Shown here: in pieces, positions 7,691 to 24,164 of the stretch
Layout: each line of letters starts with the position of its first letter
Numbering within the stretch: position 1 is the first letter of the stretch
DNA from: Candidatus Bathyarchaeia archaeon
GTDB taxonomy: Archaea > Thermoproteota > CALKCG01 > B24
DNA length: 64,000 nucleotides
Direction: 5' to 3'
Assembly: GCA_038870975.1 (NCBI GenBank)
Contig: JAVZJD010000002.1
Coordinates: 463,626 to 527,625, forward strand
Position numbers and translations under genes: made by a program
Notes under the pieces: generated by a model
What the model was told of the DNA's origin: nothing
Seen by the model: only the letters and a program-made list of their open reading frames with translations
Databases searched by the model: none

Positions 7691-8740
7691 TCATACGATG
7701 GGTTTAATGTAATCTCTACACTCGGCTTCGAAGCTCCCAATAACCAACCTATGATAAGCTTCACCACTCCTACGATCTATAACCATCTCAAGCTTACCAA
7801 GGGCCTCTACAGCATCTCCCACTTCAAAAATACCAGCGTAAAAACCCTCATAAGTCGTAAGCTCAACTAAATCTTCGACCTTAGGACCGCTTAGAAATTC
7901 AACATTCGACAGCTTGTAGACTGCAGGCATGAAGTAGGAGTCGCCAACGTCAACTACTGTAGCTTTAACCTTAACCAAATCACCAGTAGGCTTGTACGTG
8001 AAATCCCCATACTGCTCTGAAGAATCCTCCTCAATCTTTACGGGATGTACTGAGAACTCTGTACCTGCATAAATACCTCTACTCCACACCCTCCTGCATA
8101 TCTCCCAAGCATCCTTTAAACTCAACCCGTACTGTTTAGCTTTACTGAAAACCCACTTATCGAACTCCCCATTACTAAGCCATTGGACAACTCCGTTCTT
8201 CTTAAGTTCGATTAAAGTGCTTCTAATTTTAGAAGCACTTCCCCTACCGTAAACCGTTAAATCCACGTCTGAGAAAGAGGGGTTATGGATTTTGAGAAGT
8301 ATTGAACCAGTTACTCCAAAGTATTCAATAGGTATACCACTAGCTTCAGATAGTAGATCCACGAGTTCAACCGTCCTTCTCTCTAAAACGTCTAAATGTT
8401 CAATGGGTTCTCTGTAGAGTTCTCTCAACCGGAGCTCAGGCTTAAAATGCATTCTAATACTGTCAACGGGAACTGTTATCATCTCCAAGCTCATATGATC
8501 CAACCTACAGACGTAGCGTGGAAAACTGCCCTTCAGGAAGTTTAAAACCTCCTTCACGGACAAGGTTGTGTAAGACTTCAGTATTCGAGAGTATTTACGC
8601 TCCCTACCCCAAAGCCCGAAATCGCTGGGAACATATTTCAAGTAAGATATCACTCTATCCTTAGGGTGAACGTTTCCAATTACGCAGAAGAACATACCTT
8701 CATATGTTTCAAGGAAGTCTCTATCTCTAAACAGCCTCAT
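7691..8740 (-). CDS. uncharacterised nucleotidyltransferase-fold protein (Pol-beta superfamily motif), paralog 1
   Basis: 349 aa; GVTGSILLKIHNPSFSDVDLTVYG = hG[GS]-x11-DhDh NTase signature in the middle of the protein; clear paralogy with 8803-9834. Confidence 0.45.
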   Translation of the reverse strand: MRLFRDRDFLETYEGMFFCVIGNVHPKDRVISYLKYVPSDFGLWGRERKYSRILKSYTTLSVKEVLNFLKGSFPRYVCRLDHMSLEMITVPVDSIRMHFKPELRLRELYREPIEHLDVLERRTVELVDLLSEASGIPIEYFGVTGSILLKIHNPSFSDVDLTVYGRGSASKIRSTLIELKKNGVVQWLSNGEFDKWVFSKAKQYGLSLKDAWEICRRVWSRGIYAGTEFSVHPVKIEEDSSEQYGDFTYKPTGDLVKVKATVVDVGDSYFMPAVYKLSNVEFLSGPKVEDLVELTTYEGFYAGIFEVGDAVEALGKLEMVIDRRSGEAYHRLVIGSFEAECRDYIKPIV

Positions 8741-8802
8741 AACGTGGGATTTGATATCGGTAACTCTTTATATAAGCGTTACATTGGTTTAAGATTTAGA
8801 AT

Positions 8803-9834
8803 ATGAAGCTGAGAGAAGGAGACTTCCTTGAAACCTTGGAAGGCTTCATATTCGACGTTAAAGGCTTCTCCCACCCGCCGGACAGAATAATAGCCTATTT
8901 AAGATATGTTCCAGACGACTTTGGAAGTAGAGTTAGATTCGGAGTGAAATACCGTAAAATCTACAGACTTAAGGATAGAGAGGACTTTCTGAGGAAAAAT
9001 GCTCCAGTATACATATTTAGAAGCCCAGTCTTCAACATGGAGATGCAGGGAGTACCTTTAGAAAGAGTTAAACGCGTTTATAACCCCCAACTGAAGGTTA
9101 AACAGCTTATGGAGCTGGGCGTTAAAGACAATGTTGAAAGAGAAGCCTTAGAATTCGTAAAGCTTCTATCCGTTAAATCTGGAGTGCCCATAGAAAGCAT
9201 GGGGCTCTCCGGATCCATACTAGTCGATCTCCACAATGAAAAATCAGACATAGATTTAATAGTCTACGGAGAGGAAAACTCCCTAAAACTGTACAAAGCC
9301 ATCGGAGAGCTTATGAGCGAACACGATGAAGTTAAACCATACAACTTCGACGAGCTAGCTGAACTATACGAGTTTAGATCTCAAGATACGATTATACCGT
9401 TTAAAGCCTTCCTAAAAGCTGAAGGCGGTAAAAAGACACAGGGCAAGTTTATGGGTAGAAGCTTCTTCATAAGATTCCTACACGATTGGAGTGAAATCTC
9501 CGAGAAATACGGTGATAAAATCTACGAACCCATAGGATTCTGCACGATCAAAGCGGAAGTTTCAGACGATTCAGAGTCGATATTCACGCCATGTAGGTAC
9601 ATAGTTTCAAACGTTCAATTCCTATCCGGCGTAAGAATCAACCCAGCTCAAGTAAGAGAAGTCTACTCTTTCAGAGGCAGATTCTGCGAACAGGCGAAAA
9701 CAGGAGATACTATTAGAGCCTCAGGTAAACTTGAGAAGGTTACAGATTTAAACGGTGAATCCTGGTTTAGATTAGTAGTGGGGGGAGATAGAGGAGACTA
9801 CATAATTCCAGAGAACCTTCTAACAAATATCTAA
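8803..9834 (+). CDS. uncharacterised nucleotidyltransferase-fold protein (Pol-beta superfamily motif), paralog 2
   Basis: 343 aa; GLSGSILVDLHNEKSDIDLIVYG; N-terminal FLETxEG and C-terminal VSNVxFLSG blocks shared with 7691-8740. Confidence 0.45.
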   Translation: MKLREGDFLETLEGFIFDVKGFSHPPDRIIAYLRYVPDDFGSRVRFGVKYRKIYRLKDREDFLRKNAPVYIFRSPVFNMEMQGVPLERVKRVYNPQLKVKQLMELGVKDNVEREALEFVKLLSVKSGVPIESMGLSGSILVDLHNEKSDIDLIVYGEENSLKLYKAIGELMSEHDEVKPYNFDELAELYEFRSQDTIIPFKAFLKAEGGKKTQGKFMGRSFFIRFLHDWSEISEKYGDKIYEPIGFCTIKAEVSDDSESIFTPCRYIVSNVQFLSGVRINPAQVREVYSFRGRFCEQAKTGDTIRASGKLEKVTDLNGESWFRLVVGGDRGDYIIPENLLTNI

Positions 9835-23684: not shown

Positions 23685-24164
23685 TTGGGCCAAATGGATT
23701 CACTACACTCTTATGTAATTTTTCTTCCAGCTGAAGAGAAAGATAGAATATTAAGCGCCATCTTCGGTTCAAAGGCTTCCCTCGATATTTTAAGATTCTC
23801 CCTTAAACATGGGATTTCGAATAAAATCTATCAGAAGGATCTTGTAAAGAGGCTTCAATATTCGAATAAAACGATTATTGAAAATTTAAAGGTTTTAACT
23901 AAGCTTGGAGTTTTAACAGAATCTATGGAGAAGAATGAGTCGGAAGGACGAACAGTATGGGTTAAAGTCTACAAACTATCGGATGTTGGGAAGTGGTTTG
24001 CACTCCTTCTGGCAGAGGAGGAGGATTTAACAGACTTGGAGAAGGCGGAAATACTTCAAAACATTTTTAGAAGCTACGTTAGATGGGTTAAAAGCCTTTC
24101 AGAGAAACTTCGAGTAAGTAAAGATGTGCTTAAACAGATTTTCAGCGAGGAAATGGAGGACTAG
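23685..24164 (+). CDS. predicted winged-helix DNA-binding protein
   Basis: 159 aa; helix-turn-helix-like segment YQKDLVKRLQYSNKTIIENLKVLTKLGVL; weak. Confidence 0.3.
   Translation: MGQMDSLHSYVIFLPAEEKDRILSAIFGSKASLDILRFSLKHGISNKIYQKDLVKRLQYSNKTIIENLKVLTKLGVLTESMEKNESEGRTVWVKVYKLSDVGKWFALLLAEEEDLTDLEKAEILQNIFRSYVRWVKSLSEKLRVSKDVLKQIFSEEMED

Follow-up and report, generated by a model that had tools for sequence, protein, structure and literature searches.

Introduction

Which described enzymes come closest to the genes considered here? CitG and its counterpart MdcB move the ribose 5-triphosphate of ATP onto a hydroxyl group in an alpha linkage, and in the step carried out by CitX (EC 2.7.7.61) or MdcG (EC 2.7.7.66) a serine hydroxyl attacks the alpha-phosphate and pyrophosphate leaves. 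Tetrahydromethanopterin carries one-carbon (C1) units in methanogenesis, anaerobic methane oxidation and the archaeal Wood-Ljungdahl pathway; the side chain of methanopterin ends in a ribitol-O-alpha-ribofuranose-5-phosphate esterified to (S)-2-hydroxyglutarate, and the late steps of its synthesis are the ribosylation of ribitol and the coupling to hydroxyglutarate. We analysed a 64,000-nucleotide stretch of DNA from a Candidatus Bathyarchaeia archaeon (the window), which carries two divergent genes, A and B, for nucleotidyltransferases (NTases) of a family whose members are consistently embedded in methanopterin and C1 gene islands beside a CitG homologue. This embedding is the most useful new result of the analysis. 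The roles of MdcB and MdcG have been described (PMC5534430), and MdcG, the partner of the CitG-type MdcB, has been related to an ancient class of NTases (Hoenke et al. 2000, as cited in PMC5534430). In 2011 the late steps of methanopterin synthesis still lacked assigned genes, an inventory of that year counting an "estimated 7 unknown proteins" (PMC3087415), and the literature searched contains no later assignment of them.

The two open reading frames (ORFs) of the window are as follows.

7691 to 8740, minus strand: ORF A, 349 amino acids (aa), subfamily-A member of a family with an N-terminal domain, a Pol-beta NTase core and an OB fold
8803 to 9834, plus strand: ORF B, 343 aa, subfamily-B member of the same family

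How does the family, which comprises four subfamilies A-D, compare with the known systems? Like CitX and MdcG, its members are of NTase type and, in relatives of the window though not in the window itself, their genes lie beside a CitG-family gene. The chemistry that we propose below would also be the same, a hydroxyl attacking the alpha-phosphate of a 5-triphosphoribosyl adduct with release of pyrophosphate, and its product would be an alpha-ribosyl-5-phosphate phosphodiester, the linkage type of the methanopterin tail. The two groups show, however, no detectable relationship in sequence (PF03802 and PF10620 are unmatched, and hhalign against E. coli CitX gives a probability of 0.15%). The A-D proteins are about twice as long, with additional N-terminal and OB domains; the CitG homologue beside their genes forms a subfamily of its own, scoring far short of the cut-offs of the NCBIfam CitG/MdcB equivalogs; and no genes for an acyl carrier protein acceptor (CitD or MdcC), a lyase or a decarboxylase are present among the recurrent neighbour clusters.

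Three other groups invite comparison. Unlike the terminal NTases GLD-2/TENT2, CutA, Cid1 and TUT4/7, to which their identity is only 11-18%, A and B have no PAP-associated or central domain, carry an OB fold in place of the nucleotide-recognition lobe, have Arg (B) or His (A) at the aligned position presumed for the third carboxylate, and belong to a metabolic rather than an RNA context. With the minimal NTases (MNT of the HEPN-MNT pairs) they share PF01909, the sole Pfam model that they match. Minimal NTases, however, are single-domain proteins of ~100-150 aa paired with HEPN, whereas A and B have 343-349 aa, three domains and no HEPN neighbour, and their family is vertically conserved across archaeal phyla. 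Finally, in the CofC/CofD (F420) and AmgK/MurU systems a phosphorylated small molecule is nucleotidylated and then transferred to a hydroxyl. This two-step logic fits both the gene order of the actinomycete homologues (see below) and a division of labour between two paralogues, but the NTases of these systems have a GlmU/MobA-like fold and no homology to A or B.

Relatives of A and B lie in methanopterin and C1 gene islands

The family is small. When 1.84 billion proteins were searched with its profile, 1,649 cluster representatives matched at E <= 1e-3, of which 605 reached E <= 1e-30. Almost every representative listed is 330-360 aa long, and the only clear departure in architecture among the top 150 is a 505-aa protein (P0308) with an N-terminal extension of ~167 residues. 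Among the matches listed, the family is found in TACK (Thaumarchaeota, Aigarchaeota, Crenarchaeota, Korarchaeota) and Asgard archaea and in one actinomycete branch, and A and B each have separate orthologues, 42-50% identical to them, in Bathyarchaeia, Thermofilaceae, Ignisphaera, Methanomethylicia, Culexarchaeia, Methylarchaceae, Baldrarchaeota and Asgard archaea. Gene neighbourhoods were sampled at 80 species-level loci, in which all ORFs were clustered and gene order was mapped; 160 full-length family members were clustered as well.

A CitG homologue (PF01874, E 2.7e-62) lies within two genes of the family in 45 of the 80 loci, and in 25 loci it stands directly upstream of B in the same direction, with a median gap of 9 bp. 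Similarly, a multi-pass membrane protein resembling an ECF S-component (ECF-S) is encoded directly upstream of B in 33 loci (median gap 17 bp), an arrangement that spans Bathyarchaeia, Baldrarchaeota, Hodarchaeota and Thermofilaceae. It matches PF12822 and PF07155 at ~1e-6 and the folate-family model TIGR04518 (folT) at 2e-4, all of these matches lying below curated cut-offs save one to PF07155 (28.5 bits against 26.7).

Around these two partners lie the genes of the cofactor itself. For example, the order in loci L005-L007 is MptG, DUF1464, an MJ0208-type dihydromethanopterin reductase, MptE, DUF447, CitG, B and A, where MptG scores 143 bits with TIGR00144, above its cut-off, the reductase (DmrX-type) matches TIGR02700 at 4.7e-60 and MptE matches PF01973. 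The Baldrarchaeota loci contain Mer, and Ftr flanks their A/B pair; likewise, a gene of the Mer cluster is close by in two Thermofilaceae loci. In Hodarchaeota (L090), Ftr, Mtd, MptD (PF04038), PfkB and a 311-aa protein without a Pfam match are followed by B and A. On the 779-kb contig of L091 the order is MobB, CitG, a 263-aa protein without a Pfam match, B, two reverse-strand genes and A, and after A come a flavoprotein, Ftr, Mpt_N and FwdDBA; the reverse-strand genes (362 and 335 aa, one with a weak NTP_transf_2 match) are taken to be family members. A lies beside Ftr, two Mpt_N genes and FwdDBA in L092, which likewise carries CitG, and in Methylarchaceae (L088) a 343-aa gene, probably B, is followed in the same direction by A, FwdD, FwdB and FwdA. 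In Ignisphaera (L087) A is flanked by RimK/ATP-grasp ligases with a 4HFCP synthase 5 bp downstream, and in L089 B is beside RACo and CODH/ACS. CitG homologues (orf7) are already established in the tetrahydromethanopterin (H4MPT) gene islands of methylotrophs (PMC3615186), and a methylotroph gene order of Mch, glutamate ligase and triphosphoribosyl-dephospho-CoA synthase has been described (PMC11533326).

A proposed role at the end of the methanopterin side chain

What could an NTase contribute to these islands? Since the motif made by CitG and CitX is also the motif at the end of the methanopterin side chain, we propose the family as the NTase partner of the archaeal CitG homologue. At its most general, a link of the family to the cofactor, read from the gene neighbourhoods, seems to us evenly balanced. 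With somewhat less confidence we tentatively favour, for the A-D family, a phosphorylated small-molecule substrate from the pathway that makes or salvages a methanopterin-type C1 carrier, and a mechanism like that of CitG with CitX or MdcG. The specific mechanism, in which the CitG homologue and the NTase together would build the phosphodiester, is drawn by analogy and is distinctly doubtful. First, the CitG homologue would attach a 5-triphospho-alpha-ribosyl unit to the aminophenyl-ribitol intermediate. Second, a hydroxyl acceptor, for example (S)-2-hydroxyglutarate, would attack the alpha-phosphate on the family NTase with release of pyrophosphate, giving the ribose-5-phosphate phosphodiester that ends the side chain. 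Alternatively, the NTase might first nucleotidylate a ribose 5-phosphate, its partner paralogue then carrying out the transfer. A and B, and likewise C and D, would either be subunits of one enzyme or act one after the other, and the variation at the presumed third-carboxylate site (Arg in B, His in A, Glu in C, Asn in D) might reflect different sub-steps, half-reactions or acceptors.

In a bolder version, and an improbable one at present, A and B (in some genomes also C and D) would be the missing enzymes that complete the side chain in TACK and Asgard archaea. They would act downstream of the CitG homologue, in two steps like those of CitG and CitX, as hetero-oligomers in which Arg or His has replaced the third catalytic carboxylate. 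If this were true, differences in the cofactor tail between lineages would be accounted for by the four paralogues. The family and the CitG homologue offer concrete, clonable candidates for the late methanopterin steps, with CitG and CitX as the chemical precedent. The family also matters independently of this proposal, as a new three-domain NTase architecture with four ancient paralogues whose active-site residues diverge.

Several observations weigh against the role that we favour. No member from a classical euryarchaeal methanogen is present among the matches listed; those organisms also make methanopterin, and members would be expected in them if the step were universal. White is said to have reported in 1996 that phosphoribosyl pyrophosphate, not ATP, was the ribosyl donor in cell extracts. 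The dissimilarity to CitX noted above, in both hhalign and Pfam, counts here too, and an OB fold together with a core predicted to resemble the terminal NTases (TENTs) would also be expected of a nucleic-acid enzyme. CitG, ECF-S, DUF447 and C1 genes are absent within the 64 kb of the window and from its closest relatives (L001-L004), so the functional reading draws wholly on orthologues elsewhere; the local neighbours are instead a nitroreductase, Nnr, a GltB-like protein, a YfcE-like phosphoesterase, GAPDH and PGK. Finally, because most of the loci are from Bathyarchaeia, part of the synteny could be inherited and not selected, a concern that the varied arrangements and the cases outside Bathyarchaeia mitigate.

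An actinomycete branch and other possible small-molecule substrates

Full-length homologues are present on 22 Streptomyces plasmids (26-28% identity, 91-94% coverage, E down to 4e-24 in tblastn). The protein search recovered ~160 clusters, and the bacterial homologues in it, where named, are all from actinomycetes, among them Streptomyces, Streptosporangium, Kribbella, Actinomadura and Nocardiopsis; they are annotated as hypothetical or as "nucleotidyltransferase domain-containing". In the actinomycete loci examined (L081:8926-10023, L082:9001-10017, L093 and L094), the homologue follows a gene for an APH-family kinase. In Streptomyces the kinase gene and the homologue overlap, with a gene for a Zn-ribbon protein ahead of them and one or two genes for S-adenosylmethionine (SAM) methyltransferases after; on one actinomycete contig, genes for a RibD-like deaminase and a reductase are divergent from the cassette, and resistance-type genes (UvrA-like, MFS, pentapeptide repeat, MerR) surround the cassette in L081. 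Phosphorylation by a kinase followed by nucleotidylation is the usual route for activating a small hydroxylated molecule, and the actinomycete order has this layout. The branch probably goes back to an old transfer between archaea and actinomycetes, and the bacterial cassette probably modifies a small molecule.

Do the archaeal enzymes, then, act on a small molecule other than methanopterin? They might activate or salvage a vitamin brought in by the ECF S-component, possibly of CoA or flavin type, or modify a metabolite or antibiotic. Besides the S-component gene directly upstream of B and the kinase-NTase layout of actinomycetes, with its methyltransferases and resistance-type genes, this would suit the dephospho-CoA that is the known substrate of CitG, as well as the genes resembling ADP-forming acyl-CoA synthetase or SucCD that adjoin the family in Asgard archaea and Methanomethylicia. 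It would also suit a cluster in some Bathyarchaeia, at L017, L065, L066 and L080 (e.g., L080:7033-10399), where genes for a DUF763-like protein, a cytidylyltransferase-like protein, a GHMP kinase and a second ECF S-component lie beside B; the cytidylyltransferase-like protein is possibly PPAT and the kinase possibly pantoate kinase. The cluster would thus have a flavour of CoA biosynthesis, which could bear on the substrate of the CitG homologue. The commonest and most varied links of the family are nevertheless with MptG, MptE, MptD, the DmrX-type reductase, Ftr, Mer and Mtd, not with CoA genes, and no acyl-carrier acceptor of the CitD/MdcC kind was seen. We consider a substrate outside methanopterin unlikely.

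Fold, domains and the case for a nucleic-acid substrate

AlphaFold models of A and B, built on 30-sequence alignments, are both very confident (predicted local distance difference test 94.8 and 94.9, predicted template modelling score 0.89 and 0.91). Each model has three domains. The N-terminal domain, of ~95-100 residues, is basic and beta-rich; the NTase core that follows is of alpha/beta type; and the C-terminal domain is a beta-barrel with the OB fold.

9508 to 9831, plus strand: C-terminal OB-fold domain of B (~aa 236-343), with an invariant S289-x-RGRFC295 loop
7694 to 8011, minus strand: C-terminal OB-fold domain of A (~aa 244-349), isoelectric point (pI) 4.6, net charge -7

The core has the Pol-beta alpha/beta fold and an above-threshold profile score: the generic NTP_transf_2 (PF01909) is matched by B at 26 bits, over the cut-off of 21, and by A at 19.1, just below it. 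Other databases gave little. An NCBIfam scan of A and B returned no relevant match; PADLOC returned nothing for A and, for B, weak matches confined to 35-40 residues over the GS-DxD segment; PDB sequence searches with A and B, from single sequences and from profiles, returned nothing relevant and no full-length match; and Foldseek against the PDB found none at E <= 1e-3 (best E 8.5e-3, TM ~0.15). The literature search likewise found no paper on this NTase family. The first-pass annotation, made from the letters alone, had assigned the pair an NTase fold and could place it in no characterised family. On both counts it was right, the models and the GS and DxD motifs bearing out the fold, and Pfam, NCBIfam and PADLOC holding no family-specific model. 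A confident match to a characterised family such as the CCA-adding enzyme, which it had named as a refutation, was not obtained: models of CCA, PAP and TENT enzymes gave no Pfam or NCBIfam match to A or B at E up to 1. The family is thus uncharacterised, and its three-domain architecture is new within the Pol-beta NTase superfamily and without a solved relative.

A terminal NTase, or an enzyme of RNA or tRNA repair or modification, whose OB fold would hold a single-stranded 3' end and whose A and B forms would differ in specificity, is the reading that the architecture itself brings to mind, with its TENT-like core, OB fold and basic N-terminal domains. Acidic OB domains, however, such as those of A, C and D (median pI 5.0-5.5), are unusual among OB folds that bind nucleic acids, and structural matches to OB folds would be expected whatever the ligand, nucleic-acid-binding examples dominating the PDB. 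Pfam detects no PAP/TENT central or associated domain. RNA-processing genes are not recurrently linked to the family (Nop5 and fibrillarin occur in L090 only), the recurrent partners being CitG, the ECF S-component and C1-cofactor genes. Taken together, these points make a nucleic-acid substrate rather improbable. A TiaS-like enzyme was considered and rejected: TiaS also carries an OB fold, and there is no TiaS, DUF1743 or tRNA_anti-codon Pfam match.

Active-site residues

The catalytic motifs were read from both sequences, the counts for B referring to 30 B orthologues.

9202 to 9216, plus strand: B G134-L-S-G-S138, the hG[GS] NTase motif, G137 and S138 invariant in 30 B orthologues
9247 to 9255, plus strand: B D149-I-D151, metal-binding carboxylates, invariant and conserved in all four subfamilies
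9472 to 9474, plus strand: B Arg224, invariant, on the beta-strand of aa 219-226, at the presumed third-carboxylate position
8303 to 8317, minus strand: A G142-V-T-G-S146, the hG[GS] motif, G142, G145 and S146 invariant
8261 to 8269, minus strand: A D158-V-D160, metal-binding carboxylates, both invariant
8045 to 8047, minus strand: A His232, invariant, as are Ser230 and Pro233; same alignment column as B Arg224 and the subfamily-C Glu

The hG[GS] motif of the Pol-beta superfamily is present in A and B and kept in all four subfamilies, where it forms the turn between strand 1 and helix 2, and the [DE]h[DE]h carboxylate pair on strand 2 is invariant in A and B. The pattern G-x-G-S ... S-D-x-D-x-x-V-Y-G is kept throughout A-D. 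Because all four lines retain the GS and DxD motifs, none is an obvious pseudo-enzyme. The strand that follows the helical insert is where the subfamilies part: the residue is Glu in subfamily C and in the actinomycete homologues, Arg224 in B, His232 in A and Asn in D. From alignment and secondary structure we presume this to be the third-carboxylate site. Seven residues beyond it lies a conserved acid, E231 in B and D239 in A.

The functional idea put forward in the first-pass annotation, a heteromeric nucleotidyl- or signal-generating enzyme, is supported in part; a signal-generating role is not. A heteromeric signal synthase making oligonucleotides in the manner of CD-NTases and cGAS, or an NTase of defence or toxin-antitoxin systems, would be expected to show itself in PADLOC, where A has no match and those of B stop at the GS-DxD segment. 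No effector, HEPN or sensor genes are adjacent in the 80 and more loci, a search of phages yielded no family homologues, and the C-terminal domain is an OB fold instead of the helical lobe of CD-NTases. The family is conserved vertically, in the manner of housekeeping genes (45-50% identity across phyla), and not patchily like defence genes. Such a role is therefore very improbable.

Four paralogous lines and the pairing of A with B

The first-pass annotation had described A and B as a divergent pair of ~345-aa paralogues with shared terminal blocks. The ORFs lie as it placed them, and a full-length BLASTP match (35% identity, 56% positives, E 4e-56) makes them real paralogues. The shared N-terminal block reads RDRDFLETYEG..F.V.G.VHP in A and REGDFLETLEG.IFDVKG.SHP in B, and both have the C-terminal block SNVxFLSG. 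The central signature, given as GxxGS-x11-D[IV]DL, is present in both proteins; its spacing holds for A (GVTGS-x11-DVDL) and is one residue shorter in B (GLSGS-x10-DIDL). Protein B is 100% identical on contigs of GCA_038854475.1 and GCA_038884135.1, both metagenome-assembled genomes (MAGs) of hot-spring Bathyarchaeia, where the neighbouring genes are also identical in kind.

The 160 clustered members fall into four clean subfamilies, B with 77, A with 38, C with 23 and D with 22, and the family is an ancient set of four paralogous lines. An A-type gene adjoins a B-type gene in ~37 of the 80 loci, in all three orientations: divergent only in L001-L004, the close relatives of the window; convergent in most Bathyarchaeia; and co-directional in Asgard archaea, Baldrarchaeota and some Bathyarchaeia. 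The head-to-head layout is recent and lineage-specific. C and D form a tandem pair beside B in ~22 loci, and all four paralogues occur together in L041, L043, L063 and L091. In Thermofilaceae (L077, 6007-10053), an ECF-S-like gene is followed by four family genes, all in one direction, and a Mer-like gene is close by. Since the adjacency of A and B has survived repeated inversion across phyla, their products probably work together, as a heteromer or in consecutive steps, and the continued adjacency of the genes of all four lines suggests the same of the paralogues in general. One MAG (JZ-1_201912_bins_83; L035 and L075) carries two genes of B type: one is paired with A, the other comes immediately after CitG. 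This suggests sub-functionalisation within subfamily B.

Could one paralogue be the substrate of another? A protein-modifying transferase would place a phosphoribosyl group made by CitG, or AMP, on a Ser, Thr or Tyr of a partner, possibly the paralogous neighbour. The operon linkage to CitG is compatible with this, as is the fact that the only characterised consumers of the CitG/MdcB product are the NTase-related CitX and MdcG, and paired paralogues could be an enzyme and its acceptor. All four paralogues, however, keep the catalytic motifs, so none looks like a mere acceptor, and no gene for a CitD/MdcC-like carrier, citrate lyase or malonate decarboxylase was found in any locus. We regard protein modification as quite unlikely.

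A possibly shared TATA element between A and B

Two features of the intergenic region bear on the expression of the pair.

8741 to 8802, no strand: divergent intergenic spacer, 62 bp, aligned with L001-L004
8761 to 8779, no strand: invariant 19-nt core AACTCTTTATATAAGCGTT with a quasi-palindromic TATA box, from the spacer alignment (5/5 genomes)

The 62-bp gap and the TATA element reported earlier are both there, the element TTTATATAA lying at 8767-8775. Across the window and its four relatives with the divergent arrangement, the core AACTCTTTATATAAGCGTT is unchanged and the flanking spacer positions are variable. The 8-mer TTTATATA is not enriched within the window (5 found against 6.9 expected); for want of enrichment, the significance of the box lies in its position and conservation only. 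From its centre to the ATG is 31 nt on the A side and 32 nt on the B side. The usual distance from an archaeal TATA box to the transcription start is ~26 nt, and because the two distances fit this spacing we infer that one quasi-palindromic TATA box would drive A and B in both directions, giving near-leaderless transcripts. The segment 8761-8779 may thus be a case of bidirectional archaeal initiation from a single site for the TATA-binding protein. In the source genome, then, the A/B pair would have moved away from CitG and would be co-expressed from the one central box.

Other features of the window

A search of the window for C and D paralogues found none, A and B being the only family members in it. 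An apparent match at 23.7 kb was discarded as an over-extended ORF overlapping a winged helix-turn-helix gene. At 23685-24164 on the plus strand, 14 kb from the A/B pair, the window encodes a 159-aa winged-helix-like protein whose orthologues elsewhere in Bathyarchaeia directly adjoin the C/D pair, with MobB, Vps4/CdvC and CdvA-like cell-division genes next. Finally, on the two contigs with an identical B (L084:2332-3231 and L086:1-3255), genes for Cas6, Cas3 and an ADP-ribosylglycohydrolase precede the GltB-like gene by a few kb, upstream of the part homologous to the start of the window, and a CRISPR-Cas locus is probably present near the 5' end of the window.

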